A DNA stretch of 64,000 nt from Escherichia coli (GCF_044647545.1 NZ_CP172818.1); one strand, 5' to 3'; counted from the first letter of the stretch, positions 16,444-63,365 are shown. Translations and numbers: made by a program. Notes: generated by a model not told the origin, from the sequence alone.

Positions 16444-16461
16444 GTTAATTCCTGGGCTGAT

Positions 16462-19372: not shown

Positions 19373-19373
19373 C

Positions 19374-21652: not shown

Positions 21653-22418
21653 CGGTTTATCCCCGCTGGCGCGGGGAATCGCCGGAAAATATTCATGATG
21701 GGGGTGGTTATGGCGGTTTATCCCCGCTGGCGCGGGGAATCTCGGGGCCGCCGTGTTCACATTTGCCTAATTTCCCGGTTTATCCCCGCTGGCGCGGGGA
21801 ACTCTATCATAAACGAGGTGAATTTATGGAAACTGTACGGTTTATCCCCGCTGGCGCGGGGAACTCGTTAGTTTTCGAAAAAATTGTTTTCTTACGCTGG
21901 TTTATCCCCGCTGGCGCGGGGAACTCAATTATTGTCGTGGACAAATGCCGGTGTTATTGCGGTTTATCCCCGCTGGCGCGGGGAACTCATTCGAGACAAT
22001 CTCTCAAAATTAATGAAATCGGTTTATCCCCGCTGGCGCGGGGAACTCCAGGTATCAAGAAATAATCGAAGCCTTCATGACGGTTTATCCCCGCTGGCGC
22101 GGGGAACTCAATTGATTGCTGGGTGATATTGGAAAATGTTGCGGTTTATCCCCGCTGGCGCGGGGAACTCCTACCGTACAGATCCTGACCGGATATTATT
22201 TTTTTGCGGTTTATCCCCGCTGGCGCGGGGAACTCCGACGTTCGACGAAATGCGCGATGGCGGTCGGCGGTTTATCCCCGCTGGCGCGGGGAACTCTTCT
22301 GCGTCCCCGATGTCTGGCCCGACTGGTCCGGTTTATCCCCGCTGGCGCGGGGAACTCTATATGACCGGAACACTTCCGCCTGACGTTTGCGGTTTATCCC
22401 CGCTGGCGCGGGGAACTC
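21653..22418 (-). CRISPR. CRISPR array, type I-E repeat (plus strand CGGTTTATCCCCGCTGGCGCGGGGAACTC), 13 repeats and 12 spacers; leader at the high-coordinate end
   Basis: Repeat starts at about 21653, 21714, 21776, 21838, 21898, 21960, 22020, 22081, 22142, 22207, 22268, 22329, 22390; the two leader-distal repeats end GAATCG/GAATCT. Confidence 0.97.
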
Positions 22419-22523: not shown

Positions 22524-23727
<1,204 letters not shown>

Positions 23728-23742
23728 TTTATTACACCTAAA

Positions 23743-24342
23743 TCACAGTGGAGCCAAAGATAGCAAGCCACATCCCATCGATTTAGCTGGCCCAATACCT
23801 TGCTGTACAAGATCTATTAACGCTGGCGCGTCGTTGATGGTGATCACCCCTTCAAAGCAAACCGTTTGAATCTTTCCACTTTTACCATCACCAGAAAAAT
23901 ACTGTGGCCGTTCCGATATGGGATGCACATCTTCAACGCGCGCCGCATTGCCCAATTTACGTTGCAACCACGCGATTTGTTCTGCTTCTTTTATTAACGG
24001 AACCCGACAGCGTTTAATATTCCCTTTACTGTCCAGGCGCTTTTGATTGTCGAGAATAGTTTTGATCGGATTTGCCCGAAGCCGAAAATAGAGTGGAACA
24101 CCAACCTGAAGTTGAAATTCAACCTGTTTAGTTTTAATGACTGTCGCAACGGCAGTTGAAACAGGCATTTGCGCTGACTGCAATAAAACATGACAGCCTT
24201 CTGGTGTGTTTCGCTTCTCAACATGAAAAAGAAAATCACGAGCAGCATCCGGTCTGTTTGGAAATAAATGCCATAATCCCTGGTGAAGTTGGTAAAGATC
24301 CCTGCTCCAGGCCCTGGCAATGATGACTTTACTGAGATACAT
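23743..24342 (-). CDS. casE: Cascade pre-crRNA endoribonuclease CasE (Cas6e)
   Basis: 199-aa ORF starting MYLSKVIIARAW. Confidence 0.95.
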   Translation of the reverse strand: MYLSKVIIARAWSRDLYQLHQGLWHLFPNRPDAARDFLFHVEKRNTPEGCHVLLQSAQMPVSTAVATVIKTKQVEFQLQVGVPLYFRLRANPIKTILDNQKRLDSKGNIKRCRVPLIKEAEQIAWLQRKLGNAARVEDVHPISERPQYFSGDGKSGKIQTVCFEGVITINDAPALIDLVQQGIGPAKSMGCGLLSLAPL

Positions 24343-25003
24343 CCATACCTCCTTTAATCACATACCATTCTCGGGAAGCAAATTGTCGAGGTAAGGTGAT
24401 CATCGGTTCGTCGCGCGCCGTAAATTTTAAATAATGCCCTGTAACTGATTCCTCACTATAAATATCGCCGCCAACGGGCTCATAATTTAATAGCGCCTTC
24501 TGAGGATCCGATGCCTTACATGTCCCCAAAAAAAGCGGGTGTGTTAGTGGGCAACTTCTCCGCCCCAGGTAGGGTGTATACCGAGGCTTTAATACTGCTT
24601 TTTCAAGTTCTGAGATAACCATCGTTGCATGGGGTGTTAACCAGAGAGCGACGGTAAAGGAGGCATCACATAAATATTCGCGCCATGTTTGAATCGTTTC
24701 ATGACTTTTCAAACCACGGTAATCTTCTCGCGCTCCAAGGACTGTATGGTAATCACGCAACCCCGTTACAGACACACGACGATCGTCAAGAATGAGTTCA
24801 TCGCAGCGCACTGCAAATTGCACACTCTCTGATAACGCCTGTAATGAAGAAGTATCATCACGTTGGATCCCAAGACAAGCACCGAGTAGCCCTAATAACC
24901 CGCTTCGGGTCGGAAATCTTCCGGTAGGTCGCGTTCCTTCAAAGGTCGGCTGCCCCCAGGCTTGCATTGGCCCAGCAAGCCGCAAGATCAAATAAGATCT
25001 CAT
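24329..25003 (-). CDS. casD: Cascade subunit CasD (Cas5e)
   Basis: Start taken at MRSYLILRLAGPMQAWG (224 aa); overlaps the casE start. Confidence 0.92.
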   Translation of the reverse strand: MRSYLILRLAGPMQAWGQPTFEGTRPTGRFPTRSGLLGLLGACLGIQRDDTSSLQALSESVQFAVRCDELILDDRRVSVTGLRDYHTVLGAREDYRGLKSHETIQTWREYLCDASFTVALWLTPHATMVISELEKAVLKPRYTPYLGRRSCPLTHPLFLGTCKASDPQKALLNYEPVGGDIYSEESVTGHYLKFTARDEPMITLPRQFASREWYVIKGGMDVSQ

Positions 25004-25005
25004 GT

Positions 25006-26097
25006 TCACGCCTCGCCATTATTACGAACCCAGGATTTTAACTGTTCTAAAGTAGGCATTTGTTTAACTTGAGCAGTAATTGGGTCTACATCAGATAAGC
25101 TGAATTGCGCAGCAGCTCCGTTCAGACCATATCCATTGGCAACGCGATCCCAATATTGATTAAAAGCCTGTATAGACGGTTGCAAAAAGCCATCTTTCGC
25201 TTTAACCGCTTTTTCAAAAGCATTTGCCATAGAAAGTGGCATATCGGAGAAATTAACCATTACCATATCCGCAGGGTTAAAAGCGGCATAAGTACGCTGT
25301 TTTGCTCCAGGGACCTCTGTTGCCAGCATATGAACAACATGGGTTGCAATTTCCAGAGCCTGCTCCCTGGAGGCACCACCTAAATTTTCCTGAAGTTGAG
25401 CGAGGTTAATGTTGGCATAACGATAAAAAACACCCGATGAAAATTCCTGAGTTCCCAGATGTGCAGAACCTTGTTCCTGTAAATCATCTACAGCGGTGAA
25501 CCAGTCAATATCAGAATCAACCTGATGAGTAGTGATCGCATGCGCAATGGACATTGCACCATCAACTTTTCCCAACTCACTCATCATGCCGCTGGTTGCC
25601 ATTCTTCCACTAAGCGCAATATCAACACCCTGCTGTAAATTCACACGTATGGCGGCAATATCTTCCTTAAGAACTTTGAGCAGCTTTTTATCATCCAGAT
25701 TATCAGCCTCTGCTTTTGCAACCTGCTCACAGAACCAGGCTATTTCTCCCACAACCCAGGGAGTAACCGCATCGGCAGAAATCTTTTCGGCTTCATCAAC
25801 TAATTTACCGGAGAGCAGCGCTAATGTCTTATCGATGATTTTTTGGTCAAAACGTTCACCAAGTTTTTGCCGAAGAACATCACGTAATTGTGCAAGATGA
25901 ATTGTTCTGAGACTGGATTCACCAATATTTTGTGCGTAATAATCACTTTTACGCATCGCACGTTTAAGGCTTTGACTTGAAATTCTTACTCGTCTTTTCC
26001 CGCCGAAAATAGCGTCTTTCTGCATGTTCATATCGTCGCGGTTCAGACATGAAGGGCTGTGAGAAATCAGAACATGAATATTGATAAAGTTAGACAT
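25006..26097 (-). CDS. casC: Cascade backbone subunit CasC (Cas7e)
   Basis: 363-aa ORF. Confidence 0.95.
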
Positions 26098-26109
26098 AGA
26101 AAGGTTTCC

Positions 26110-26592
26110 TTACGCATTTTTGTTTGTGGTCAATACAAAATCTTCCAGAAGTTGCTGGCGTTCGCGCTTTCCCCACCAGGTCAACATCCTGGCCATTAAT
26201 GGCCAGTCAAGTACGGGTTCGGCGTGAGTAAGTAATCGACGTAACTGGACCATATCGGCTGTTCTGTCAGCCCGAATTAATTGAAAGATACGGCGCTCGT
26301 TAATTCTTCCACTATTGGCTAAAGCTCTTCCCAACGAGATACCTGTTGTTTGCTCCGGTTTTTTGTCCTGATGTCGGATGACATTCTTTCCTGCGCTCAG
26401 GCAAAACACCATGCGCAAAAGAGCCTGCTGGTGACGTGGGTTTTCCCAACCAAAAGGTTGCACCAGCCTATAAAACGCAGGGATATCGCGTAATTCATCA
26501 GGTTCTGAAACACGTCTAATTTGCGCACATGCTCCATTATCCAGTTGTTGCCAGGCTCGATATAAAGCCATTGCATCAATTTCATCAGCCAT
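26110..26592 (-). CDS. casB: Cascade small subunit CasB (Cse2)
   Basis: 160-aa ORF. Confidence 0.95.
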   Translation of the reverse strand: MADEIDAMALYRAWQQLDNGACAQIRRVSEPDELRDIPAFYRLVQPFGWENPRHQQALLRMVFCLSAGKNVIRHQDKKPEQTTGISLGRALANSGRINERRIFQLIRADRTADMVQLRRLLTHAEPVLDWPLMARMLTWWGKRERQQLLEDFVLTTNKNA

Positions 26593-28093
26593 TTGATGGC
26601 CCTCCTTGCGGTTTTAACTCCCGTAAATGTTTGTATAGCGTGGCGCGGGCAAGCGCTAATGTGCTTATTAATTTAGGATGATGTGCATAGGGAGCTTCAG
26701 ATTGATTAAATAGCATTTCACACAATTGATGAAGTTTGTCTCGTAAATCAGCTATTACCTCATCAGCTTGGGAAAAATTAATATTCGCCAGTACATCGGG
26801 AATTAATAATTCACTCTGTCGATAGAAATGCCTTTCTGCAGTCTCATGAACAGAGACTCCGGCCCCTTTGAAATCTTTATTTTTAAACCCTTCTGCAAAG
26901 GTATATAACGCCTTGCGTAAGGCTGTTTTATATCCCAAACCAACAGTCACTATTTCGTTTATCACATTGCCGTATTGTTGCCACCCCTGATTAAACATCA
27001 ACACATCATGACGCCGTTCAAGAATAGATGCTTGATTATTACGATATCCCCCCATAATCAATTCAAGAGGACTTTGCGGCGCAATATTTCTGAATTGATT
27101 CACAACCGCCGCCACGCGATTTCCATTTTCATTTTGAATAATCTTATCTACCACAACTCGGCTGATTTGTGTCCATGATGGTGCGGAGGTGGTGAAAGCA
27201 AGAAATTTTTCCTCAACCTCCCCTTTCTTGACTGTTACCAGACAAGGGGAATGCGGATGGGGCCATAGCCCATTAACTGTAAAGGTAAATTTTTCCTTAA
27301 GAAAACCGGTATAACGCAAATTGCTTTCCTGTCCACAGCAAGAACATTTACCAATCCCAATGGGATCGCATAATTCAATATGCGCTGGTTGCCAGAATAA
27401 GCCACGGACAAACCCAATTGACGAAGCTGGCACAGATTCATTGGGTTTGACAGGCTTAACCCAGGTAGGTTGGTTTTCCGTATGTAATTCATTGGGAAAT
27501 TGTTTTTGAAGACGAGGTATTGTGAGGACATTGAGTAATACCGTCGAGCGAAGATCGATCCCACATACGAAGGTGGTTATAGGTGTTCCTCCACGTAAAC
27601 CGCTTTTAAAGCCACCACCAAAACCAGGTGCCTGATTCGCCTGGTTGAATAACGCAATCGCAGTGCATCCACCACATAATGCTTCACCCTGCCCCGGTTG
27701 ATTGACAAATGCACAATTCGTCGCGCCGCTTACCCCAGCCAACAGTTTTTCCATTGGAGTCACATCATTTGCTTTGACACCTTTGGTCTGCATAAAGGGA
27801 TGTTCTGCGTGATTAAGGTAGAACATATCTATCCACGGCGCGATGAGTTGTTGAAACTCATCTTCAGTGAGCGGATTCATTATGCGATGTCGAAATTCAA
27901 CGTCATCTTTTGCCGGGGCGATAATTTGCCCAATGCAAACCAGCAGTGCTAAAGCGGCCAGTTCCATATCGTCACGGGGCAAACTTAATCGCCACTGATC
28001 TCTACTGCAGTATAGCGATTGCAGATTTATGATTTGGACTTCCCCCCCGTTTCGCGGGCGTACAGGGATCCAGTTATCAATAAGCAAATTCAT
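26585..28093 (-). CDS. casA: Cascade large subunit CasA (Cse1)
   Basis: 502-aa ORF; 8-bp overlap with casB. Confidence 0.95.
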   Translation of the reverse strand: MNLLIDNWIPVRPRNGGEVQIINLQSLYCSRDQWRLSLPRDDMELAALALLVCIGQIIAPAKDDVEFRHRIMNPLTEDEFQQLIAPWIDMFYLNHAEHPFMQTKGVKANDVTPMEKLLAGVSGATNCAFVNQPGQGEALCGGCTAIALFNQANQAPGFGGGFKSGLRGGTPITTFVCGIDLRSTVLLNVLTIPRLQKQFPNELHTENQPTWVKPVKPNESVPASSIGFVRGLFWQPAHIELCDPIGIGKCSCCGQESNLRYTGFLKEKFTFTVNGLWPHPHSPCLVTVKKGEVEEKFLAFTTSAPSWTQISRVVVDKIIQNENGNRVAAVVNQFRNIAPQSPLELIMGGYRNNQASILERRHDVLMFNQGWQQYGNVINEIVTVGLGYKTALRKALYTFAEGFKNKDFKGAGVSVHETAERHFYRQSELLIPDVLANINFSQADEVIADLRDKLHQLCEMLFNQSEAPYAHHPKLISTLALARATLYKHLRELKPQGGPSNG

Positions 28094-28507
28094 TTGTTCT
28101 CCTTCATATGCTCCGACATTTCTCCTGCATTTCTATACGTCGGCACACTTCCGTTATCGGTAAAAACAAAGAAAAAATACGGCGTAATTAATTCAATAAT
28201 CACATTCACTGCAAAAATATATTCATTGGTTTAATACAATTAACCTATGCATATATTAAGATGTGTTGAATTGTTTAAAGACAATAATGCATGCATTTCA
28301 AATCTGCAAGTTATTCGTTTTATTATCAAAGAAATTTTTAGTTATAATAATTACCATAAATTTTATTACATAAAATATTCATACTGTGAATATAAAATCT
28401 CATACCGGGAAATTAAAAGAAGATGTACATTGTGCACCTTCCCTACTTAAGTAGGGATAAACCGTTATTGGTCTTGTTATCGTCATTGATACCAATCATT
28501 CCCGAAG
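28094..28507 (-). promoter_or_regulatory. Strongly AT-rich cas3–casA intergenic region; site of the casABCDE12 promoter (Pcas), known in E. coli K-12 to be H-NS-silenced and LeuO-activated
   Basis: AT-rich 414-bp gap read directly; promoter role from established knowledge. Confidence 0.7.
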
Positions 28508-31174
28508 TTATTTGGGATTTGCAGGGATGACTCTGGTCATCCCTTCATCCCGAGTGTAGGTAATAACAATATTATTACCCTGCCAGATCCATCCATCCTG
28601 ATTCTGTTTCCCTTCCAGCCAAAGTACCCCATCTTCATCTACTACTTCAGAAAAATTACGTTTCCAGGTGAAGGGTACATTGACGCGATTAAGTGCTAAC
28701 GCCTCATACTGCTGTTCATGACTTAGGTCCTCGTAGACCTGGCCATCGAGCAGTTGTTTACCTGAAGACGTTTGTAAATAAGGCAATAATGGCAGGCTCA
28801 TTTCCCCATCCCTCGTTACCGCAAGAATTGTTTCATCGTTATCCTGCAAGCTATATTCTTCAGCCCACTGCAGAACCTTGCGAGCCTTGAACCTCTTTTC
28901 ACACTCAGCACTTTCATACTTATCCATGCCTTTGATGACCCATTCTGGCTCATCCATTTCAGCATCATCGTAAATGCTATCCAGCCATTGCCGGTAGGCA
29001 TCAGGGAAAAATAAGGATGCTCCATTAAGTTCCTCAATATGTTGCTGCGTCCGCCACATGACTCTAACGTTGCTATAAATATGCTCATGTCGTCCGTAAC
29101 CTTCGCCATCAGGCAGCAAAACGCTGGCAAGAGGAACCTCAAAACCAGCGGGACGATATTTGCGATGATGGCGATGTAAACGGCCCAATCGTTGGAAAAG
29201 TAAATCTGCGGGGCAATGCTGAGTAATTAACCAATCAAAATCAACGTCGAGTGATTGTTCCACGACCTGGGTGGCGACAAGTATCCGTCCAACATTTCGC
29301 TTCCCATTTTTGCCGAAATTGCTAATAACTCGATTCTCTTTTTCACGACGATCGTTCAGCGTAAAGCGCGCATGAAACAAATCTATATCTACTTGCGTGT
29401 TATTTAGTTCCTTTAACCGTTGGTGGCATAGTTGTGCAACATCAACCAAATTGCAGATAAGACAGACTTGTGCACCCGCATTTGCCGCTACGATCATTCG
29501 CTCTAACATCCTAAGGTCAGGTAACATGTCAGCTAAATAAATAGGTTCTGGCCGAATCGAAAAGCGGGGCGGGAGTTGTTCTGAATGAGCTAACAGATCA
29601 AAACGTTGTGCACCATTCACACCTCGCCAGTTAATGAGTGGATATGCGGAGTTATTTTCCTCTGGATCTGTATGCAGACCATAAGTATCCAGAAGTTTCT
29701 GTTTTTGTTTCATTGGTAGAGTTGCGGAAAGAAGAATAACACTCCCCCCCACATCAGCCTGAGCCTTGAGCACAGCCTCCAGCAAGCCGTTCATATACGT
29801 GTCGTAAGCATGAACTTCATCAACAATTAAAACACTTCGACCAATTCCCAAACCACGGATAAAGCGGTGTTTAACTGGCAATACCGATATCAACACCTGA
29901 TCAATCGTGCAAACGCCGATTTGCCCAAGAAACACTTTCTTATTGCTTTGTGACAACCACTGACAACACTGAACCCATGCTTCTTCTTGCCCCTGCTCAG
30001 TAAATGCGCGTGATTTTATTGATTGAAAAAGGTGGTTAAAACGTGAATTACCATGAGCAAGAATAAGATTTGGGGAGGTAAATAAACGGCTCGCGTTCGC
30101 TTCCATTCTGCTGAGCATTGCATTTGCAGTAGCTTGTGTAGGGAGGGCAAAAATAACACTATCCGCAAGTTGTTGGTCAATAAGTTTCCAGGCATAGGCC
30201 AGCGCTGTTTCGGTTTTACCTGATCCCGTAGGTGCCTCAATCACCGTCAGCCCGGGAGCTGCAGGAAGAGCATCAACTAACACTTGTAATTGTCTGGGTT
30301 GATAGCCATTGTCCAGTAGAGCATGAACACCTTCATAACATCGCTTATTTGATACAAGGCCGCTCAACTCCAATACCCGGCTCGCATCCTGCTGTCGGTC
30401 CTGGAAATACGTTCTTAGAGCATTTATGTTGGAAGGTGCATCCTCTTTAAACAGAAAGGTATTCGTTGTAGTCCAGGAGCCTAACCAGTCAGCAAGCGAG
30501 CAAAAACCTGCTAACAGTGATGAACAATCAGGTGGTATATCGTTTATAGATAACCCGGCTGGCGTTAAAAATAATGCTTCGAGTACAGATATCCACTCCT
30601 CACGAGCCTGTTTATCTTGCGCAGCATAAGATGCCAGAGAAGCTGGCATTTCCCAACGCGACTTATCTTGATCCTGGGAATGTAATATAAAACCATGATG
30701 TCCTGTAACGGCCTCTACCCATGGAAACCAGGACTCATAAGGATGAGGAGCGGCATCAAAAAAACTGAAAAAATCCCCGGGAGATTGCTCTGAAAGTGAA
30801 TCCTGGTTAAACCAATACAGACCGGCTGCACCATGATTAAATTTACGGCACATTTGTGTTGATGGACCATTAAGTGATGGCGTTGCAGGATTTAATTTCA
30901 GCCAACTTTCTGCTGATTTATATTGGAATCGTATATCAAACTTTCCGATATCATGAAGGGCAATGAAAAATAACAGCCAGGCTTTCACCATCTGTTTTGA
31001 TAGCATTTCATTTTGGCAAAAAGCATTTTGTAGTACGACTGATTGTTCCCACCAGCAATCTGCAACAGCTGCAACATCCAGGCAATGATAAATCAACAGA
31101 TGAATATCATTTCCTTTCGTCAGGCTTTTTGAGGATTTCCCCCAGTAATGACATATATATTTAAAAGGTTCCAT
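28508..31174 (-). CDS. cas3: CRISPR-associated nuclease/helicase Cas3 (HD nuclease + SF2 helicase)
   Basis: 888-aa ORF starting MEPFKYICHYWGKSS; helicase motifs APTGSGKTE and DEVH. Confidence 0.96.
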   Translation of the reverse strand: MEPFKYICHYWGKSSKSLTKGNDIHLLIYHCLDVAAVADCWWEQSVVLQNAFCQNEMLSKQMVKAWLLFFIALHDIGKFDIRFQYKSAESWLKLNPATPSLNGPSTQMCRKFNHGAAGLYWFNQDSLSEQSPGDFFSFFDAAPHPYESWFPWVEAVTGHHGFILHSQDQDKSRWEMPASLASYAAQDKQAREEWISVLEALFLTPAGLSINDIPPDCSSLLAGFCSLADWLGSWTTTNTFLFKEDAPSNINALRTYFQDRQQDASRVLELSGLVSNKRCYEGVHALLDNGYQPRQLQVLVDALPAAPGLTVIEAPTGSGKTETALAYAWKLIDQQLADSVIFALPTQATANAMLSRMEANASRLFTSPNLILAHGNSRFNHLFQSIKSRAFTEQGQEEAWVQCCQWLSQSNKKVFLGQIGVCTIDQVLISVLPVKHRFIRGLGIGRSVLIVDEVHAYDTYMNGLLEAVLKAQADVGGSVILLSATLPMKQKQKLLDTYGLHTDPEENNSAYPLINWRGVNGAQRFDLLAHSEQLPPRFSIRPEPIYLADMLPDLRMLERMIVAANAGAQVCLICNLVDVAQLCHQRLKELNNTQVDIDLFHARFTLNDRREKENRVISNFGKNGKRNVGRILVATQVVEQSLDVDFDWLITQHCPADLLFQRLGRLHRHHRKYRPAGFEVPLASVLLPDGEGYGRHEHIYSNVRVMWRTQQHIEELNGASLFFPDAYRQWLDSIYDDAEMDEPEWVIKGMDKYESAECEKRFKARKVLQWAEEYSLQDNDETILAVTRDGEMSLPLLPYLQTSSGKQLLDGQVYEDLSHEQQYEALALNRVNVPFTWKRNFSEVVDEDGVLWLEGKQNQDGWIWQGNNIVITYTRDEGMTRVIPANPK

Positions 31175-45848: not shown

Positions 45849-47327
45849 ATGTCGAAAAAATACATCATAGGGATTGATGGCGGAAGTCAGAGCACAAAAG
45901 TGGTGATGTACGATCTGGAAGGTAATGTGGTTTGCGAAGGCAAAGGCTTATTGCAGCCGATGCACACGCCAGATGCCGATACCGCAGAACATCCTGACGA
46001 CGATTTATGGGCATCATTATGTTTTGCCGGTCACGATTTGATGAGTCAGTTTGCCGGAAATAAAGAAGATATTGTCGGTATTGGTCTGGGATCCATCCGT
46101 TGCTGCCGTGCGTTATTGAAAGCCGATGGCACGCCAGCTGCGCCGTTGATTAGCTGGCAGGATGCACGCGTTACACGCCCTTACGAACATACGAATCCTG
46201 ACGTGGCATATGTCACCTCTTTTTCAGGTTATCTGACGCATCGCTTAACCGGCGAGTTTAAAGACAATATCGCCAACTATTTTGGTCAGTGGCCGGTGGA
46301 TTATAAGACCTGGGCATGGAGTGAAGATGCCGCAGTCATGGAGAAGTTTAATATCCCCCGTCATATGCTGTTTGATGTGCAAATGCCGGGCACTGTTCTT
46401 GGGCATATCACTCCTCAAGCCGCGCTGGCGACACATTTCCCAGCTGGGCTGCCGGTTGTTTGTACCACCAGTGATAAACCGGTAGAAGCTCTGGGAGCCG
46501 GATTACTGGATGATGAAACGGCGGTGATTTCTCTTGGCACCTACATCGCGCTGATGATGAACGGTAAAGCACTGCCGAAAGATCCGGTGGCGTACTGGCC
46601 GATTATGTCTTCTATTCCGCAAACATTGCTGTATGAAGGTTACGGTATTCGCAAAGGCATGTGGACGGTGAGCTGGCTGCGCGACATGTTAGGCGAGTCG
46701 TTAATTCAGGATGCCAAAGCACAGGATCTTTCACCGGAAGATTTGCTCAACAAAAAAGCGTCTTGTGTGCCGCCTGGCTGTAATGGTCTGATGACGGTGC
46801 TGGACTGGCTGACCAATCCGTGGGAACCATACAAACGCGGGATTATGATCGGCTTTGATTCCAGCATGGATTACGCATGGATATATCGTTCGATACTGGA
46901 AAGCGTGGCGCTGACGCTGAAGAACAATTACGACAATATGTGTAATGAAATGAATCACTTTGCAAAGCATGTGATCATTACTGGCGGCGGTTCGAACAGC
47001 GATCTGTTTATGCAGATTTTTGCCGACGTGTTCAACCTTCCGGCACGCCGTAACGCCATTAATGGTTGTGCAAGTCTGGGGGCAGCGATCAATACGGCGG
47101 TAGGTCTGGGGCTATACCCGGATTACGCAACGGCTGTCGACAAAATGGTTCGCGTGAAAGATATCTTTATGCCTGTTGAGAGCAACGCCAAACGCTACGA
47201 CGCGATGAATAAAGGCATTTTCAAAGACCTAACCAAGCACACTGATGTGATCCTGAAAAAATCGTATGAAGTGATGCATGGTGAGCTGGGGAATGAAGAT
47301 TCGATCCAGAGCTGGTCGAATGCGTAA
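45849..47327 (+). CDS. ygcE: FGGY-family carbohydrate kinase
   Basis: 492-aa ORF starting MSKKYIIGIDGGSQSTKVV. Confidence 0.85.
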   Translation: MSKKYIIGIDGGSQSTKVVMYDLEGNVVCEGKGLLQPMHTPDADTAEHPDDDLWASLCFAGHDLMSQFAGNKEDIVGIGLGSIRCCRALLKADGTPAAPLISWQDARVTRPYEHTNPDVAYVTSFSGYLTHRLTGEFKDNIANYFGQWPVDYKTWAWSEDAAVMEKFNIPRHMLFDVQMPGTVLGHITPQAALATHFPAGLPVVCTTSDKPVEALGAGLLDDETAVISLGTYIALMMNGKALPKDPVAYWPIMSSIPQTLLYEGYGIRKGMWTVSWLRDMLGESLIQDAKAQDLSPEDLLNKKASCVPPGCNGLMTVLDWLTNPWEPYKRGIMIGFDSSMDYAWIYRSILESVALTLKNNYDNMCNEMNHFAKHVIITGGGSNSDLFMQIFADVFNLPARRNAINGCASLGAAINTAVGLGLYPDYATAVDKMVRVKDIFMPVESNAKRYDAMNKGIFKDLTKHTDVILKKSYEVMHGELGNEDSIQSWSNA

Positions 47328-47335
47328 GTGAGGAA

Positions 47336-47359
47336 GACCGGGCGGGAAACTGCCCGGCC
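47336..47359 (+). terminator. Short GC hairpin (ccgggc / gcccgg) after ygcE; weak terminator candidate
   Basis: 6-bp stem, no clear T-run. Confidence 0.3.
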
Positions 47360-47374
47360 TGAACATACCTGAAT

Positions 47375-47511
47375 GGTTATCCCCGCTGACGCGGGGAACA
47401 TAAGTTCGACAACTTAAAAAATGATAACAAGTCCGGTTTATCCCCGCTGATGCAGGGAACATAATAAAAACTTTAACTAGTTCGTTTATCCCTGTTGTTA
47501 CAAGGAATATT
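47375..47511 (-). CRISPR. Degenerate CRISPR remnant: three decayed type I-E-like repeats
   Basis: ggttatccccgctgacgcggggaacat; cggtttatccccgctgatgcagggaacat; cgtttatccctgttgttacaaggaatat. Confidence 0.75.
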
Positions 47512-47964
47512 AACTACACTCGATGTCTTTAGAATAAAAGACAATACGAATCGCACTTTATCAATTTTCACTTAAAGTATGAACTGGATATCTTTATTCA
47601 TAAGAACTATTCATCAACAGCGTATAGAGGCGGTTATGTAAAACCACTCATTAGCCTCAAAACAAAGACAAACTTCCAGATTTATTACTTAATCAATGAA
47701 TAACAAGCTTAAAAAATACACTGTTATTCTAAAGAAAAAATTAACAGGCATTAATTAATATTAAAAAAAATAATATATTAAAATTTCTTAACGGTTTAAG
47801 GATTATACAAATAACACTTTGATTAAATTTGATTTTTTGTATCGATAATTGTGAACTTATCTGGCATGGAGAACTATTTTGAACATGAGGTGTTATGTGG
47901 ATATGTTGCTTATTACAAGTACAGCTAATATAAAAACTTGAGAAAGAGATAACGGGTTATATGG

Positions 47965-48367
47965 TGGTTCATCCCCGCTGGCGCGGGGAACACGTCTTTT
48001 TGACCGGCCGGTAAATCGTCTGCCTGCGGTTTATCCCCGCTGGCGCGGGGAACACAAACCATTCTCGCAATCAAGGACTATTCCTAGACGGTTTATCCCC
48101 GCTGGCGCGGGGAACACGGTCGCAGGGAATACAAAGCCGTGCATCCTGCTCGGTTTATCCCCGCTGGCGCGGGGAACACTGGCTCTGCAACAGCAGCACT
48201 ATGACCCCGTCGGTTTATCCCCGCTGGCGCGGGGAACACGAAAAGCTTATGATCGTTAATGCCGCAAACACCGGTTTATCCCCGCTGGCGCGGGGAACAC
48301 ATTACACCTATGTGCGAGCGCCCGGTTTTTGCCGCTAGCGGTTTATCCCCGCTGGCGCGGGGAACAC
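47965..48367 (-). CRISPR. Orphan CRISPR array, 7 repeats and 6 spacers, repeat variant ending GAACAC (plus strand CGGTTTATCCCCGCTGGCGCGGGGAACAC)
   Basis: Repeat starts at about 47965, 48027, 48089, 48151, 48211, 48272, 48339; the first repeat is a variant (ggttcatcc). Confidence 0.95.
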
Positions 48368-48706
48368 TCTAAACATAACCTATTATTAATTAATGATTTT
48401 TTAAGCCAGTCACAATCTACCAACTTTATAGTATCACACAAACAACACATCCATTATGTTAAAGAGCACTTAATCCATTGATTAAAAAGGTAAATATTTA
48501 AAATAACTCTATACAAACTAAAATCTACCAAACTTTACCGCAATAATTTTCACTCCAGCGAAAAATTAACGCCACAGAATTTGTAGAGAATGATAATGAT
48601 TAGTTCAGGATGGGCAAGATGGATGAGTTTTCAGAGGCGACAAACAATATAAATGAGTAGAAGTCTTTACAGGTTCCACCCATTTATAACGCTTATAAAT
48701 GTTTAA
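48368..48706 (-). promoter_or_regulatory. AT-rich leader of the second CRISPR array
   Basis: AT-rich segment adjoining the most conserved repeat; begins tctaaa like the array 1 leader (tctaaaag). Confidence 0.6.
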
Positions 48707-49378
48707 TCAGGCAATATTTAGATATTTATGTGTTTGCATCGACAAACGCCAATTACGCGCAATGCAGGTTTCAATGCACAAACGTGTGGCATCATCCTTT
48801 TGGCTAATCGGCTGCAGTGCAATGACTCGCGGTTTATCATCGGTCAGCGTTGCCAGTAGTTCATCCAGTGCTTCAATATCACGTACGCGCCCCACTGGAT
48901 GCTTGATTTCGTTGGCTCGCTCCAGTGCCTGTGACAACACTTCATAGCCGCCGCGCATGTTCAACTTTGGTGATACGGTAACCCAGGTATTCGGTGTGCA
49001 GCGTACCTCATGAGTACCACTGGTTTCGATCTGGCAGCTAAAACCGTTCTTTTCGAGCAGATCAGTCAGTGGCAGCAAATCATGAATGCAAGGCTCACCA
49101 CCCGTAATCACCACATGCCGTGCGGTGTATCCCTGGCGACCAATGACAGCCAGCAAATCTTCACTGCTCGCAGCCCCCCACTTATCACTCTCTTTGGTCT
49201 TCGCCAGAATGCTGAAAAGGGAGACTTCCCGATCCTCAAGCTTTTCCCAGGTGTGTTTGGTGTCGCACCAGGCACAGCCAACCGGGCATCCCTGTAAACG
49301 AATAAAAATGGCGGGGACGCCGGTAAAGTAACCCTCACCTTGCAGGGTCTGGAACATCTCGTTAATCGGGTACTGCAT
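48707..49378 (-). CDS. queE: 7-carboxy-7-deazaguanine synthase (radical SAM)
   Basis: 223-aa ORF; Cys motif CPVGCAWC. Confidence 0.92.
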   Translation of the reverse strand: MQYPINEMFQTLQGEGYFTGVPAIFIRLQGCPVGCAWCDTKHTWEKLEDREVSLFSILAKTKESDKWGAASSEDLLAVIGRQGYTARHVVITGGEPCIHDLLPLTDLLEKNGFSCQIETSGTHEVRCTPNTWVTVSPKLNMRGGYEVLSQALERANEIKHPVGRVRDIEALDELLATLTDDKPRVIALQPISQKDDATRLCIETCIARNWRLSMQTHKYLNIA

Positions 49379-49671
49379 AGCATTCTCTGTGAAGTGGATA
49401 ATTGTTAATTATTGCAGATCCTGCCACAACAATCATGTCTTATTAACATTCTGTTACAGGCAGGTTTAAAGAAAAATGAGAAACAGATCGTTAATAATAA
49501 AAGGAAGTAACGTATTATGTCAGAAATAAATAAAGTAAAGGGATTTAATCATGTCAAAAACATTCACCGAAATTATACTTATTTTTTCTGTGTTCGTTTT
49601 TAATTATAACGAATCTCAAATTACCGGTGCCGCCGTCAATTTATTTATCCAGCTTTAATGGGACATTTATA

Positions 49672-50544
49672 ATGCGCTATTTCATACTAATATTCACATT
49701 CGTGTGTTCCTTTGTTGCAGCCCAACCAACTATTGTCCCACAATTACAGCAACAAGTTACGGATCTTACGAGTAGCTTAAACTCACAAGAAAAGAAAGAA
49801 CTGACGCGGAAGTTAGAATCTATTTTCAATAATACCCAAGTACAAATTGCTGTATTAATTATTCCCACAACCAAAGACGAGACAATTGAACAATATGCTA
49901 CAAGGGTTTTTAACAATTGGCGTTTAGGAGATGCCAAACGCAATGATGGGATACTGATCATTGTTGCCTGGTCGGATCGCACTGTCCGCATCCAGGTAGG
50001 TTATGGGCTGGAAGAAAAGGTAACCGATGCTCTGGCTGGAGATATCATCCGTAGCAACATGATACCCGCATTTAAACAACAAAAATTAGCTAAGGGATTA
50101 GAGTTAGCTATAATCGCTTTGAATAACCAACTCACTTCACAACACCAATATTCGGCTAATCCTTCAGAAAGTGAATCAGCGTCTTCCAGCGATTATTACT
50201 ACTTTGCTATTTTTTGGGTATTTGCAGTGATGTTCTTCCCTTTCTGGTTTTTTCATCAAGGCAGTAATTTTTGTCGCGCATGTAAAAGCAGTGTCTGTAT
50301 TTCAGCAATCTATCTTTTAGATTTATTCCTGTTCTCCGATAAAACTTTTTCCATTGCTGTATTTTTCTTCTTTTTTACTTTCACCACCATTATGGTCTTT
50401 ACCTGTTTATGTGTACTTCAGAAAAAAGCATCTGGTAGAAGTTATCATTCAGACAACAGCGGTTCCGGTGGCGGCTCAAGTGGCGGCGGATTTAGCGGCG
50501 GGGGCGGTTCTTCTGGCGGTGGCGGCGCGTCCGGTCGCTGGTAA
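49672..50544 (+). CDS. ygcG: TPM-domain membrane protein with Gly/Ser-rich C-terminal tail
   Basis: Start taken at [10 protein letters not shown] (290 aa); signal/transmembrane segment; C-terminal [20 protein letters not shown]. Confidence 0.8.
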
Positions 50545-50552
50545 CTCAACCA

Positions 50553-50584
50553 TAAAAAATGCCAGCCCGAAGGCTGGCATTTTT
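50553..50584. terminator. Bidirectional rho-independent terminator between ygcG and eno (A6 atgccagcc cgaa ggctggcat T4)
   Basis: Perfect 9-bp stem with a 4-nt loop, flanked by A and T runs. Confidence 0.85.
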
Positions 50585-50603
50585 AAATCAGATAAAGTCA
50601 GAC

Positions 50604-51917
<1,314 letters not shown>

Positions 51918-51988
51918 TCACTAGTTAAACTGAAACTCCAGACAAACAACGCGTACCCAGGGTACGCGTTGCCGTTCTAACTTTTTTC

Positions 51989-53641
<1,653 letters not shown>

Positions 53642-53853
53642 TTAGGTTGAAAAGACGATGGAATAACCAGGACGGGAAAGCAGTATACCCGAACATGACC
53701 TGTGCCACAAACTTTCATTATCCCTCCTCTTCGCCAGCGCACTATTGAAATCAGGAGTGAGAAAATAGCCCCTTTGGGGTAAATGTTTTTGACGCAAATC
53801 AAGCGCTTGTCATTTAAAAAATGACACAAATGGCGCTTGACCGCGTAATTCCC

Positions 53854-54645
53854 TTAGAGATCAATTTCCTGCCGTTTTACCTGTTGCCAGACTTCTTCCA
53901 TTGTTTCGAGGTCAACACCTGTCATTTCCAGTCCACGCGCGGCAACAATACGCTCCACTTCGCGAAAACGACGCTCGAATTTTTCGTTCGCTTTTTGCAA
54001 TGCGATTTCCGCTTTTGTCCCTAAATGACGAGCCAGATTGACCGTGGCAAACAGCAGGTCACCCATTTCCTCCTCCAGTTTAGCCTGGTCGACAACAGCC
54101 TGCTGCGCCTCGTACATCACCTCGTCGATCTCTTCGTAGACTTTATCGACTACCGGACCAAGCGTCGTCCAGTCGAAGCCAACGTTGGCGCAACGTTTCT
54201 GGATTTTTTGCGCACGCATTAAAGCCGGTAAACTACGAGGAATATCATCCAGCGCCGAATGCTGTGCTTTCTGCGCGCGTTCTTCGGTTTTGATTTGCTC
54301 CCAACGGGCGAGCACTTCACTACTGTTTTCGGCAGAACTGTCAGCAAAAACATGCGGATGGCGACGCTCTAATTTATCGCTAATAGCAGCGCAAATATCA
54401 TTAAAGTCAAAGCGCCCTTCTTCCTGAGCCATTTGTGCGTAAAACACCACCTGGAACAGCAGATCGCCCAGTTCACCGCGCAGATCGTCAAAATCTTCAC
54501 GGGCGATGGCGTCCAGCACCTCGTAGGTTTCTTCAAGGGTGTAAGGCGCAATGGTGGCAAATGTCTGCTCTTTATCCCACGGGCAGCCGTTTTCCGGATC
54601 GCGCAGGCGCTGCATAATAGTGAGCAAACGGTCGATTTGATTCAT
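53854..54645 (-). CDS. mazG: Nucleoside triphosphate pyrophosphohydrolase MazG
   Basis: 263-aa ORF; two MazG-type domains. Confidence 0.93.
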   Translation of the reverse strand: MNQIDRLLTIMQRLRDPENGCPWDKEQTFATIAPYTLEETYEVLDAIAREDFDDLRGELGDLLFQVVFYAQMAQEEGRFDFNDICAAISDKLERRHPHVFADSSAENSSEVLARWEQIKTEERAQKAQHSALDDIPRSLPALMRAQKIQKRCANVGFDWTTLGPVVDKVYEEIDEVMYEAQQAVVDQAKLEEEMGDLLFATVNLARHLGTKAEIALQKANEKFERRFREVERIVAARGLEMTGVDLETMEEVWQQVKRQEIDL

Positions 54646-54716
54646 TGAATTGTCCTGAAAATTGCGGGTCTGTCAGGTGGAAACCTGTGACCAGAATAGA
54701 AGTGAGTTAGTAACAC

Positions 54717-55052
54717 CTACCCAATCAGCACGTTAATTTTGGCTTTAATGAGTTGTAATTCCTCTGGGGCAACTGTTCCTTTCTTCGTTGCTCCTCTTGC
54801 CCGCCAGGCGATACTTTTTACCTGATCAGCTAACGCTACGCCATCACGTTCCTGACCGGATAGAACAACTTCGAACGGATATCCTTTTGATTGCGTTGTA
54901 CAAGGAACACACAGACACATACCTGTTTTGTTGTTGTACATGAACGGACTCAGGACAACAGCCGGACGATGTCCGGCTTGCTCGCTACCTTTTGTCGGGT
55001 CAAAATCAACCCAAATCAGATCGCCCGTATCGGGTACGTATCGGCTTACCAT
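54717..55052 (-). CDS. mazF: Type II toxin MazF (ACA-specific mRNA interferase)
   Basis: 111-aa ORF starting [19 protein letters not shown]. Confidence 0.95.
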   Translation of the reverse strand: MVSRYVPDTGDLIWVDFDPTKGSEQAGHRPAVVLSPFMYNNKTGMCLCVPCTTQSKGYPFEVVLSGQERDGVALADQVKSIAWRARGATKKGTVAPEELQLIKAKINVLIG

Positions 55053-55300
55053 TACCAGACTTCCTTATCTTTCGGCTCCCCCCAGTCGATATTCTCGTGG
55101 AGGTTTTCCGGCGTGATGTCGTTGACCAGTTCAGCAAGCGTAAATACGGGCTCTTTACGCACTGGCTCAATAATTAATTTTCCATCCACCAGGTCAATCT
55201 TCACTTCATCATCAATATTCAGATTGAGCGCCTGCATTAACGTAGCCGGGATCCGCACTGCAGGAGAATTTCCCCAACGCTTTACGCTACTGTGGATCAT
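55052..55300 (-). CDS. mazE: Type II antitoxin MazE
   Basis: 82-aa ORF starting [18 protein letters not shown]; 1-bp overlap with mazF. Confidence 0.95.
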
Positions 55301-55320
55301 AACCCTTTCCTCAAACCGCT

Positions 55321-55367
55321 ATCATATGTAGATACAGTATATATCAATCTACATTGTAGATACGAAC
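55321..55367 (-). promoter_or_regulatory. mazEF promoter/operator region with repeated tgtagata motifs and an inverted partner (alternating palindrome)
   Basis: tgtagatacagtatatatcaatctacattgtagatac lies 20–67 nt upstream of the mazE start. Confidence 0.7.
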
Positions 55368-55377
55368 AAGTTTCGGC

Positions 55378-57612
55378 CTAACTCCCGTGCAACCGACGCG
55401 CGTCGATAACATCCGGCACCTGGTTGAGTTTACCCAGCACGCGGCCCAGCACTTGCAGGTTGTAAATCTCAATGGTCATGTCGATGGTCGCCAGTTGCTG
55501 TTTGGTGTCGCTACGGCTGGCAACGCCAAGTACGTTCACCTTCTCGTTGGCGAGAATGGTCGTGATATCACGTAACAACCCACTACGATCATTAGCCACC
55601 ACGCGGACCACCAGCGAATATCCGGCGGAGTAGCTCTCGCCCCATACCGCGTCAACAATGCGTTCTGGCGCATGGGAGCGCAGTTCCGCCAGTTGTTCGC
55701 AATCGGCGCGGTGTACTGAAATACCGCGTCCCTGGGTAATGAAGCCGACAATCTCATCTCCAGGAATCGGCTGGCAGCAGCGCGCGATGTGGTGCATCAG
55801 GTTACCGACCCCTTCTACCACCACACGACCGTTATCTTTACTGCGGTTTTGCGGCGTGTAGCTTTTTTGCTGAAGCTGTTTCAGCGCGGCGGCATCCTGC
55901 TCTTCGGCACTCGGCTTATTAAATTGCGATTGCAGGAAGTTCACCATCTGATTGAGACGGATATCCCCGCCACCAATTGCCGCCAGCAACTCGTCGACAT
56001 CATTGAAGTTGTAACGCGGCAGCAGATGTTTTTCTGCTTCTTTCAGGCTGATCCCCAGATGTTCCAGCTCGTCGTCAAGGATTTGCCGCCCAGCCAGAAT
56101 GTTTTTGTCACGGTCCTGTTTACGGAACCAGGCGTGAATTTTCGAACGCCCACGGCTGGTTGTGACGTAACCGAGATTTGGGTTTAACCAGTCACGGCTG
56201 GGGTTCGGCTGTTTCTGGGTGATAATTTCAATCTGGTCGCCCATCTGCAGCTGGTAGGTGAACGGCACAATGCGCCCGCCAATTTTTGCCCCGATGCAGC
56301 GGTGTCCGACATCACTGTGGATGTGGTAAGCGAAGTCCAGCGGTGTTGATCCCGCAGGCAAATCAACGACATCACCTTTCGGCGTAAAGACGTACACCCG
56401 GTCGTCAAAGACCTGGCTGCGTACTTCGTCGAGCATTTCGCCGGAATCAGCCATCTCTTCCTGCCACGCAATCAGTTTACGCAGCCAGGCAATTCGGTCT
56501 TCATGTCCCGAACGTGCGCCGCCAGCTGCCGCGCCCTCTTTATATTTCCAGTGCGCAGCAACACCCAACTCTGCATCTTCATGCATCTGTTTGGTGCGGA
56601 TTTGGATCTCAACGGTTTTGCCACCCGGCCCCAGAACCACGGTATGAATAGACTGATAACCGTTTGGTTTCGGGTTAGCGACGTAATCGTCGAACTCATC
56701 CGGCAGGTGGCGATAGTGAGTGTGCACTATCCCCAGTGCGGCATAACAATCCTGTAAACGCTCGGCGACAATACGTACCGCACGCACATCAAACAGCTCA
56801 TCGAAGGCGAGGTTCTTTTTCTGCATTTTGCGCCAGATGCTGTAGATGTGTTTCGGTCGACCATACACTTCAGCTTTAACGCCTTCAGCTTTCATCTCAG
56901 CGCGCAGATGGCCGACAAACTCTTCGATATAGTGTTCGCGGTCGAGACGGCGTTCATGCAGCAGTTTTGCGATGCGTTTGTATTCGGTCGGGTGGAGATA
57001 ACGGAAGCAGTAATCTTCCAGCTCCCATTTCAGTTGCCCAATCCCAAGACGGTTCGCCAACGGCGCGTAGATATTGGTGCACTCTTTTGCCGCCAGTACG
57101 CGTTCATCTTCCGGCGCGTCTTTTACTTCGCGCAGATGAGCAATACGCTCTGCCAGTTTGATGACCACGCAGCGGAAATCATCGACCATCGCCAATAACA
57201 TCCGGCGAACGTTATCGACCTGTTCGGAGGAAACAGAATCGGTATGCGTCGCTTTCAGCTGGCGGATCGCCGCCATATCACGCACGCCGTGAATAAGGTT
57301 AACGACCGACTTACCGACGCTCTCACGCAGCACATCTTCGCTGACTACGTTGGCATCCGCCAGAGGGAACAGCAGCGCCGCCCGCAGCGTGTCAATGTCC
57401 ATACTTAATGTCGAGAGGATCTCCACCATCTCAACACCACGCCACAATAACAGACTGGCATCCGGATGCCCCTGCGTCTGTTGCAGACAATATGCCCAGG
57501 TTTCGGCTAAGCACTCACACGACTTCTGGCTGGTAATACCCAGACTTGCGATCCATTTTTCCGGATCAAATTCACCAGCCTTATTGATATGTGCACTTCT
57601 TACCGCAACCAT
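55378..57612 (-). CDS. relA: GTP pyrophosphokinase ((p)ppGpp synthetase I)
   Basis: 744-aa ORF. Confidence 0.96.
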   Translation of the reverse strand: MVAVRSAHINKAGEFDPEKWIASLGITSQKSCECLAETWAYCLQQTQGHPDASLLLWRGVEMVEILSTLSMDIDTLRAALLFPLADANVVSEDVLRESVGKSVVNLIHGVRDMAAIRQLKATHTDSVSSEQVDNVRRMLLAMVDDFRCVVIKLAERIAHLREVKDAPEDERVLAAKECTNIYAPLANRLGIGQLKWELEDYCFRYLHPTEYKRIAKLLHERRLDREHYIEEFVGHLRAEMKAEGVKAEVYGRPKHIYSIWRKMQKKNLAFDELFDVRAVRIVAERLQDCYAALGIVHTHYRHLPDEFDDYVANPKPNGYQSIHTVVLGPGGKTVEIQIRTKQMHEDAELGVAAHWKYKEGAAAGGARSGHEDRIAWLRKLIAWQEEMADSGEMLDEVRSQVFDDRVYVFTPKGDVVDLPAGSTPLDFAYHIHSDVGHRCIGAKIGGRIVPFTYQLQMGDQIEIITQKQPNPSRDWLNPNLGYVTTSRGRSKIHAWFRKQDRDKNILAGRQILDDELEHLGISLKEAEKHLLPRYNFNDVDELLAAIGGGDIRLNQMVNFLQSQFNKPSAEEQDAAALKQLQQKSYTPQNRSKDNGRVVVEGVGNLMHHIARCCQPIPGDEIVGFITQGRGISVHRADCEQLAELRSHAPERIVDAVWGESYSAGYSLVVRVVANDRSGLLRDITTILANEKVNVLGVASRSDTKQQLATIDMTIEIYNLQVLGRVLGKLNQVPDVIDARRLHGS

Positions 57613-57659
57613 CGTCCTCTCCTTTAGGGACCAGACCTGCCGAAATCGGCAAATCGCAA

Positions 57660-58961
57660 CTATTTAACGCGCGAGAAAAGTACCATCGATTCCAGATGTC
57701 CCGTGTGTGGGAACATATCCAGCATCGCCAGTCGCGCAATGGTATATCCTGCTTTTAATAACGCTTCGCTATCCCGAGCCAGCGTTGCAGGGTTACAGGA
57801 TACATAAACTATACGAATAGGTTCCAGTTTTATAATTTGCTGCATAACACCTGCGGCACCTGCTCGCGCCGGGTCCAACAACACTTTATCGAAGCCGTTT
57901 TTCGCCCACGGCTGCTTTGTGACATCTTCTTCAAGATTTTCGTGATAAAACGTCACATTGTGTAAGCCATTAAGACGCGCATTCTGCTGGCCTTTTTCAA
58001 CCAGCGCCGGAACGCCTTCTACACCGACCACACTGGCAGCTTGTGTCGCCAATGGCAGTGTAAAGTTGCCCATACCGCAGAACAGATCCAGTACGCGATC
58101 TTCAGGTTGCACATCCAGCCATTCCAACGCACGCGCTACCATTTTTTGGTTCACACCCGCATTGACCTGAATAAAATCGCGCGGGCTAAAAGTTAAGCGC
58201 AACCCATTTGAGTCATACCAGGGCATCTCACCAGAGACGGTTTCGAGTATCTCACTATCGGGGGCGAGATACAGATCCAGTCCTTCAGAATGCGAAAAGC
58301 ATTCCAGTTTTTCGCGATCTGCCGAACTTAGCGGTGCGGTATGGCGCAAAATCATTAGCGTGCCGCTGGTTGCCTGTACCAGTTCAACATGACCAAGATG
58401 GCGCATAGCTTGTAAGCTGCCCAGGCATGCCCTGACTTTGGGCAGCAATGCTTCAAGTTGGGGCACTAAAATGGGGCATTGTTTAACGTCGACAATGTCA
58501 CTGGAGCCCGCTTTGCGAAACCCCATCTGAAGTTGCTGTGTTTTCGGTAAGTAGTTCAGACTTAAACGCGCGCGACGGCGATAGCCCCAGGGAACATCGG
58601 CGATCACTTCAGAGACTTCGTGTTTCATTAATCGGGCGAGTGCCGCACTTTTGCTTCGCTGCTGTAAATCCACACTGGCGTGTTGTTGCTGACAGCCGCC
58701 GCATACGCCAAAATGAGGACAGCGTGGCGTTTCGCGTTCCGGACTATCGCTTAACCGGCGTACGACTTTAGCGCGGGCATACTGTTTTTTATCTTCAGTA
58801 ACAGTAACTTCCGCGTTTTCCTGCGGCAATAATCCGGGGATAAATAATGTTTTGCCGTTATGTCGCGCCACACCCTGACCAAAAGAGTCGAGGTCGTTGA
58901 CTGAAACGGTTATGATCTGACGCGTCGTCGTGCGTCGTTTTGCAGAGTAGAATTGCGCCAT
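57660..58961 (-). CDS. rlmD: 23S rRNA (uracil1939-C5)-methyltransferase RlmD (RumA)
   Basis: 433-aa ORF; Fe-S Cys cluster near the N-terminus; C-terminal methyltransferase domain. Confidence 0.93.
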
Positions 58962-59017
58962 TGGCGAGACTTTCTCAATTTAACAGTGTGACCTTAATTG
59001 TCCCATAACGGAACTCC

Positions 59018-61774: not shown

Positions 61775-61848
61775 CGGACGTCTTGTCGAGTAGCAATCGG
61801 CTTTTTATGAAGCTGGTTTCAGACTGGTGACAAAGTGCCTGTGTTTAT

Positions 61849-61882
61849 GCCGGATGCGGCGTTAACGCCTTATCCTGCCTAC
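61849..61882. repeat. REP element downstream of barA
   Basis: tgccggatgcggcgttaacgccttatcctgcctac matches the REP pattern. Confidence 0.6.
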
Positions 61883-61965
61883 AAAATCAATTAAATTCAA
61901 TGAATTAAAAAGTATGTTGGCCTGATACGTAGCGCAACAGGCAATTTTGCGTTTGGCATCAGTCT

Positions 61966-61999
61966 CAAACCGGCTCCTGACAGAGCCGGTTTTTGTTTT
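61966..61999 (+). terminator. Rho-independent terminator (aaccggct cctgacag agccggtt + TTTTTGTTTT)
   Basis: 8-bp stem followed by a T-run. Confidence 0.7.
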
Positions 62000-62004
62000 C
62001 AGTC

Positions 62005-63345: not shown

Positions 63346-63365
63346 ATTTATGTCCTTTTTCAAAA

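Follow-up and report, generated by a model that had tools for sequence, protein, structure and literature searches.

The stretch of Escherichia coli DNA analysed here (the window, 64,000 nucleotides of NZ_CP172818.1 from assembly GCF_044647545.1) contains the known CRISPR-II locus, which is composed of the CRISPR2.3 array and the CRISPR2.2 remnant and has already been described. The locus is real. Its leader is identical to that of K-12, the cas genes that belong to it are intact, and the spacers of its array are of mixed origin. The number of repeats, the irregular lengths and the 38-nt spacer written in the record are very probably assembly errors and not properties of the living strain. Published work on CRISPR-II of E. 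coli, both descriptive and experimental, goes back to about 2010. All features are collected in Table 1.

Table 1. Position of the CRISPR-associated features and their flanking genes in the window.
Feature	Position	Strand	Remarks
CRISPR2.1 array	21653..22418	-	T-type repeats; beside cas2; 13 repeats against 14 in FDAARGOS_497; garbled like CRISPR2.3
Type I-E cas operon	22524..31174	-	cas3, casA, casB, casC, casD, casE, cas1, cas2; all 8 ORFs full length
ygcE (left flank)	45849..47327	+	FGGY-family sugar kinase; 492-aa ORF; collinear with K-12 b2776
CRISPR2.2 remnant repeat 1	47373..47401	-	repeat family D1/D2; same as K-12; 7-bp hairpin, -15.1 kcal/mol
CRISPR2.2 remnant repeat 2	47434..47462	-	same as K-12; hairpin -12.1 kcal/mol
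CRISPR2.2 remnant repeat 3	47482..47510	-	heavily mutated; 78% identity to remnant repeat 2
AT-rich stretch between CRISPR2.2 and CRISPR2.3	47511..47964	.	454 bp; 27% G+C
CRISPR2.3 array as written in the record	47965..48367	-	7 repeats, 6 spacers; 403 nt
Spacer 1 (farthest from the leader)	47994..48026	-	33 nt; garbled copy of FDAARGOS_497 spacer 1
Spacer 2	48056..48088	-	33 nt; mix of K-12 spacer 2 and FDAARGOS_497 spacer 2
Spacer 3	48118..48150	-	33 nt; K-12 spacer 3 with bases of FDAARGOS_497 spacer 3 (GGTCG..., ...GCATCCTG)
Spacer 4	48180..48210	-	31 nt; K-12 spacer 4 with one deletion and two substitutions
Spacer 5	48240..48271	-	32 nt; K-12 spacer 5 with 4 substitutions
Spacer 6 (leader-adjacent)	48301..48338	-	38 nt; K-12 spacer 6 with the tail of the last FDAARGOS_497 spacer
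Leader 2.3 and remaining AT-rich region to queE	48368..48706	-	30% G+C
queE (ygcF, right flank)	48707..49378	-	223-aa ORF; K-12 b2777

The CRISPR-II locus and its cas operon

The published CRISPR-II locus lies between ygcE and ygcF and possesses CRISPR2.2 and CRISPR2.3, 0.5 kb apart, with a leader beside CRISPR2.3 (PMC3903273). The same arrangement is present in the window, where the gap of 454 bp between the two elements agrees with the published separation (PMC3903273), and K-12 MG1655 aligns collinearly with the window over 63.7 kb (96.9% identity). Repeat finding from 46500 to 49500 recovered the array of seven repeats and six spacers that the initial annotation had placed between the two genes. 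Its repeats start at 47965, 48027, 48089, 48151, 48211, 48272 and 48339. The repeat unit is 29 nt long and reads CGGTTTATCCCCGCTGGCGCGGGGAACAC on the plus strand; on the transcribed minus strand this A-type repeat is GTGTTCCCCGCGCCAGCGGGGATAAACCG. Six of the seven copies are exact, and the one at 47965-47993, farthest from the leader, is degenerate with two mismatches (TGGTTCATCC...). A repeat pattern allowing up to three mismatches gave 21 matches across the window, 13 of them in the CRISPR2.1 array, against none in 100 shuffles.

The repeats of CRISPR2.3 match the type I-E family consensus GWGTTCCCCGCGCCAGCGGGGATAAACCG, which is also the published E. coli repeat consensus (PMC3338789). The repeat is predicted to fold into a hairpin with a G+C-rich stem of 7 bp and a loop of 4 nt (-15.2 kcal/mol, z = -3.2), and by this predicted fold it would have the stem-loop expected for Cas6e. 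The repeats end in ...GAACAC, those of the CRISPR2.1 array in ...GAACTC. This one-base difference between the arrays, reported earlier for the window, was seen in both arrays and is the known A/T polymorphism; two repeat variants differing by A or T, with a typical period of 61 bp, have been described (PMC3737337). The repeat at 48272-48300, second from the leader, has the consensus CGG; its K-12 equivalent shows the known CCG-to-CCT polymorphism (AGG on the plus strand), and the relatives have this variant at another repeat.

Three heavily mutated repeats had been reported upstream of the array, and all three were found, as the CRISPR2.2 remnant. The second shows 3 mismatches to the consensus over its first 27 bases. 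The third starts 48 nt after the second, against an expected period of 61, and keeps a 7-bp stem (-7.9 kcal/mol). As none of 200 shuffles folded as well, the stem was retained through paired changes. The sequence of this third repeat is also present in natural genomes. No recognisable leader was found at the remnant, and the AT-rich stretch of 47511-47964 showed no significant similarity to either of the two leaders. The CRISPR2.2 remnant is most likely inert.

The AT-rich leader is situated at the queE end of CRISPR2.3 and the degenerate repeat at the other end. Because the transcribed strand is the minus strand, the leader belongs on the queE side, the side which had been called correctly before. 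Over the 193 bases adjoining the array, the window does not differ from K-12 or from FDAARGOS_497. A simple promoter scan of the region 48368-48706 gave nothing above chance.

Each of the eight cas ORFs scored above the NCBIfam curated cut-off for its own type I-E family, and the operon is 100% identical to that of FDAARGOS_497. The cas gene nearest to CRISPR2.3 is cas3 (28508-31174), at a distance of 16,791 bp. Thus the array is an orphan only locally, with a complete cognate cas operon 16.8 kb away. The initial annotation had noted the absence of adjacent cas genes and let both the array and the remnant repeats depend on the distant operon, which holds for the array; for the remnants, which have no recognisable leader, nothing points to such a dependence. 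Between cas3 and cysH, at 31254-31410 on the minus strand, the Rfam model of the sok antitoxin RNA was matched over its full length (102.6 bits). It was the sole family reported over the window at the Rfam gathering threshold; its position corresponds to the sokX locus of K-12, a remnant of hok/sok type beside the cas operon.

From what is known in other strains, transcription of the array would begin in the AT-rich leader next to queE and follow the minus strand, and Cas6e (CasE) would cleave the pre-crRNA where the stem of every repeat hairpin begins. The resulting 61-nt crRNAs would enter Cascade, followed by recruitment of Cas3, while Cas1-Cas2 would add new 33-bp spacers at the junction of leader and repeat. 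All these proteins would be supplied in trans by the intact type I-E operon 16.8 kb off. Such working of the locus has precedent in K-12, where CRISPR 2.1 and CRISPR 2.3 were both found by Swarts et al. to acquire spacers of 32-33 nt beside the leader, where spacers in CRISPR 2.1 or 2.3 were shown experimentally to confer interference, and where transcription and processing into crRNAs guiding interference were demonstrated for CRISPR 2.3 (PMC3338789). The type I-E operon of wild-type cells is expected to be mostly silenced by H-NS in this strain as well; repression of the system by H-NS, and its relief by LeuO, have been described (PMC4782391).

Lengths and origin of the spacers

Regular repeat spacing had been taken as a mark of the array. 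The repeats do recur, in seven copies, and their spacing is irregular throughout, which had gone unremarked. The distances from start to start are 62, 62, 62, 60, 61 and 67, against 61 or 62 in natural arrays. From the ygcE side to the queE side the spacers measure 33, 33, 33, 31, 32 and 38 nt. Among 85 spacers of seven natural arrays, 78 are of 32 nt and seven of 33 nt, and no other length occurs. The array in the record thus departs from the regular 61-62-bp period and the 32-33-nt spacers of the type I-E family, and we attribute this irregularity to error in the sequence of the record, not to the locus.

The regions 22450-47300 and 48400-64000 are 100.0% identical to complete genomes including FDAARGOS_497, ECONIH1, MS6198 and IMT16316. 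Over 386-4370, 10466-21678, 22324-47996 and 48339-64000 taken together, one base of the window differs from FDAARGOS_497. Direct comparison with this genome covered 10466-48367, where differences were found only in 21679-22323 (CRISPR2.1), in 47997-48338 (CRISPR2.3) and at base 47780. The last is the single difference in the flank on the ygcE side; the other 94 differences of the ygcE-queE region all fall within 47997-48338, the span of the six spacers. The array has 403 nt in the record, 395 nt in K-12 and 1251 nt in FDAARGOS_497, and the distance from ygcE to queE is 1.38 kb in the record against 2.1-2.2 kb in the relatives. When 5,426 complete E. coli genomes were searched, the best match to the array showed 87.8% identity.

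Ordinary mutation of K-12-type spacers, which drifted in a genuine seven-repeat array while the array was silent, would be another explanation. Kinship with the K-12 spacer of the same position can be recognised in five of the six spacers, and shared spacers of natural strains do differ by one or two bases. However, in the comparison of the ygcE-queE region with K-12, differing columns make up 24.3% of the spacers, 1.5% of the repeats and 2.5% of the neutral AT-rich flanks (Fisher p = 2e-25), and divergence confined to the spacers rejects ordinary drift. Moreover, the flanks are of the FDAARGOS_497 type and not of the K-12 type, many of the apparent mutations are the bases of unrelated FDAARGOS_497 spacers standing in register, the insertions and deletions yield lengths unseen in the 85 natural spacers, and a similar array was not found among the 5,426 genomes. 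Drift is therefore considered very unlikely.

Alignment of the individual spacers distinguished the two sources. Five of the six are closer to the K-12 spacer of the same ordinal, and for four of the six the best-scoring FDAARGOS_497 spacer is the one in register. Counted from the nearer flank, the FDAARGOS_497 spacer in register outscores the 19 others for spacers 1, 2, 3 and 6. Spacer 1, at the end away from the leader, is the first spacer of the relatives in damaged form; it scored 20 against FDAARGOS_497 spacer 1 and 1 against K-12 spacer 1, while no other FDAARGOS_497 spacer exceeded -4. Spacer 2 scored 8 against K-12 and 3 against the FDAARGOS_497 spacer of the same position, with the others at -4 or below. 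For spacer 3, three of the four departures from K-12 are the FDAARGOS_497 base. The genuine sequence of K-12 spacer 4, CAACAGCAGCACCCATGAC, is the published site of primer BG3415 (PMC3338789). A motif of spacer 5, GCTTAT, is also present in FDAARGOS_497 spacer 19, which merely ties with another FDAARGOS_497 spacer in scoring, and a mix of the two sources is not shown for this spacer. No spacer of the array is identical to any natural one.

The leader-adjacent spacer had been singled out for its 38 bp. This length is confirmed in the record, while its standing as a biological oddity is lost. The extra bases match the tail of a spacer of another strain: K-12 spacer 6 (ATTACGCCTTTTTGCGATTGCCCGGTTTTTGC, 32 nt in natural genomes) runs, by way of a TTTTTGC common to both, into the end of the last FDAARGOS_497 spacer (...TTTTTTGCCGCTGAG). 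It scored 15 against K-12 spacer 6 and 7 against FDAARGOS_497 spacer 20, with the other FDAARGOS_497 spacers at -2 or below. In reference-quality sequence, namely K-12 MG1655 and the genomes with identical flanks, the corresponding spacers have the standard 32 nt, an outcome that the initial annotation had named as refuting its reading. The spacer contains CCCGGTTTTT. The stretch cccggttttt, earlier read as resembling a repeat start, belongs to the authentic K-12 spacer 6, and a decayed repeat inside the spacer was rejected because CCCGGTTTTTGC is native to that K-12 spacer. The exact 38-mer was absent from the genome_contigs and metagenome_contigs collections.

A genuine but aberrant Cas1-Cas2 integration, from a slipped or imprecisely trimmed prespacer, might also give an overlong spacer. 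Aberrant integration is documented, in the form of a 35-bp intervening sequence beside a repeat trimmed by 2 bp (PMC3737337). The documented events keep the 61-bp period, whereas here the distance is 67 and both flanking repeats are intact. Further, an old and widely shared K-12 spacer makes up the first 32 nt in mutated form, and the extra 6 nt match the end of the last spacer of the relatives. The full 38-nt protospacer was not found in phages or plasmids. This origin of the spacer is extremely unlikely. The spacer homology search that the initial annotation had proposed gave no credible protospacer in phages or plasmids; its full-length matches were other CRISPR arrays, hit through the repeat, and one weak partial match was obtained in Corynebacterium phages (E = 3e-3).

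Damage elsewhere in the window and probable source of the errors

The same kind of damage was observed in other segments of the window. The CRISPR2.1 array consists of FDAARGOS_497 spacers with one unit dropped, and its length of 766 nt follows K-12 (763 nt) and not FDAARGOS_497 (823 nt). Three of its spacers measure 31, 31 and 36 nt, and at the end away from the leader two repeats each lack one base (GGGGAATCG, GGGGAATCT). At the beginning of the window, positions 1-167 are a 91% copy, with insertions and deletions, of a TOBE-domain gene which is present between fhlA and ygbA in FDAARGOS_497 and not in K-12. Positions 168-385 are homopolymer junk of A, G and C which derives from neither K-12 nor FDAARGOS_497, and exact sequence begins again at 386. 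The segment 1-385 has the look of a consensus that failed across an insertion missing from K-12.

In the variable region between mutS and rpoS, FDAARGOS_497 possesses genes of hydroxyarylic acid decarboxylase while the window has ygbI-ygbN of K-12 (4371-10480). The first 1.7 kb of this block, the ygbI/ygbJ stretch at 4371-6065, contains dozens of small and mostly frameshifting insertions and deletions along with an in-frame stop. The following 6065-10480 is 100% K-12, a block of 4.4 kb which FDAARGOS_497 lacks. The junction of the K-12 block with sequence of the FDAARGOS_497 type was found in no complete genome, the best match being 98.4%. FDAARGOS_497 sequence in register was tried as the source of the ygbI/ygbJ noise and rejected, as agreement at shift 0 was 16% and none of the shifts gave a distinct peak. 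All four of the large structural differences between K-12 and the FDAARGOS_497 lineage found in the window are garbled, and three of the four have the length of K-12.

A real recombinant of a K-12-like and an FDAARGOS_497-like array, produced by repeat-mediated recombination or by horizontal exchange, would account for the signal of both parental arrays, and recombination between CRISPR arrays has been reported (PMC4524480). Recombination at repeats gives whole parental spacers, though, and not an interleaving of single bases or insertions and deletions of 1-6 nt, and equal garbling is present in segments of the window which are not CRISPR. Such a recombinant is highly unlikely. It is likewise extremely improbable that the record is correct and that a living strain had its spacers converted, one base at a time, into mixtures of two unrelated sets with non-canonical lengths of up to 38 nt; if this were true, an unknown process would edit or convert spacers and spare the repeats and flanks.

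The low-complexity junk at 168-385, the noisy K-12 copy that turns perfect after 1.7 kb, and the perfect repeats beside half-remembered spacers are features which could be expected from synthetic sequence, whether made by a generative sequence model or planted. Against this, two broken ORFs of the ygbI/ygbJ stretch, one on the minus strand (4614-4991) and one on the plus strand (5698-6291), match exactly in proteins predicted from public NCBI genomes, each being found exactly once, with an NCBI source, in a collection of 15 billion proteins. Every garbled segment also ends exactly where homology between K-12 and FDAARGOS_497 resumes, which needs an alignment-based process. A synthetic origin of the segments is thus highly improbable. 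As the collection derives these ORFs from NCBI, the damage is present in the deposited record. None of the ORFs on the CRISPR2.3 array was found in the protein collection, which makes the link between array and contig an indirect one. The NCBI contig with both broken ORFs has 4,499,902 bp, and the sizes are 4.64 Mb for K-12 and 4.94-5.31 Mb for close relatives, a shortfall of 0.4-0.8 Mb against the latter; the smaller size fits an assembly templated on K-12, and the whole record may be reference-templated and devoid of strain-specific islands.

With assembly error as the preferred reading, we infer a consensus-type error as the procedure behind the mixing, in which K-12 sequence, present as reference, scaffold or contaminant, would have been merged with reads resembling FDAARGOS_497 or ECONIH1. 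A plain consensus from mapping to K-12 explains the two arrays and the retained K-12 block. It was rejected as a full account because the partial TOBE-domain gene (1-167) and the noise in ygbI/ygbJ stay unexplained by it. An erroneous scaffold polished with long reads, or a long-read assembly of mixed strains, would fit better. The true array of the sequenced strain probably has about 19-21 repeats. If the array in the record is an artefact, the reads should span an array of 19-21 repeats with intact 32-33-nt spacers, and none should contain ATTACACCTATGTGCGAGCGCCCGGTTTTTGCCGCTAG.

Nothing is added to the biology of CRISPR-II by this locus, and its worth lies in the warning on a public record. 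Neither the spacer content of the two arrays nor the sequence of at least two further strain-variable segments can be relied upon, and CRISPR typing, spacer-target assignment and gene-content calls made from the record would be wrong. The case also provides a usable error signature, composed of perfect repeats and flanks, partly mutated spacers, and an array length that matches a reference strain.

Comparison with known CRISPR loci

Among the closest known counterparts is CRISPR-II of K-12 MG1655 (NC_000913.3, about 2903420-2904407). It shares with the window the position between ygcE and queE, the leader, the seven repeats and the A-type repeat. Its remnant repeats are the same except for two base differences, and five of the six spacers of the window are recognisably those of K-12 with their order kept. 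K-12 differs in that the far-end repeat and the adjacent spacer of the window are of the FDAARGOS_497 type, in the CCT polymorphism of its repeat 2, which is missing from the window, and in the genes around the locus, which are diverged from the window by about 3%.

FDAARGOS_497 (NZ_CP033850.1) and ECONIH1 (NZ_CP009859.1), a group which we take to be ST648 of phylogroup F, are further counterparts. Their flanks are identical to the window save one base, they carry the same degenerate end repeat (TGGTTCATCC...), and their first spacer and the tail of their last spacer are recognisable in the window. Their CRISPR2.3 arrays have 21 and 19 repeats, respectively. In contrast to the window, they contain 18-20 intact spacers of 32-33 nt, none of which is intact in the window and none of which is a K-12 spacer.

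Other parallels are CRISPR2 of Salmonella enterica and the arrays of cas-less E. coli such as BL21, whose type I-E repeats belong to the same family and occupy a conserved chromosomal site away from cas genes (PMC2886076, PMC3737337). Those arrays are served in trans or stranded, whereas the window has a complete cas operon 16.8 kb off.
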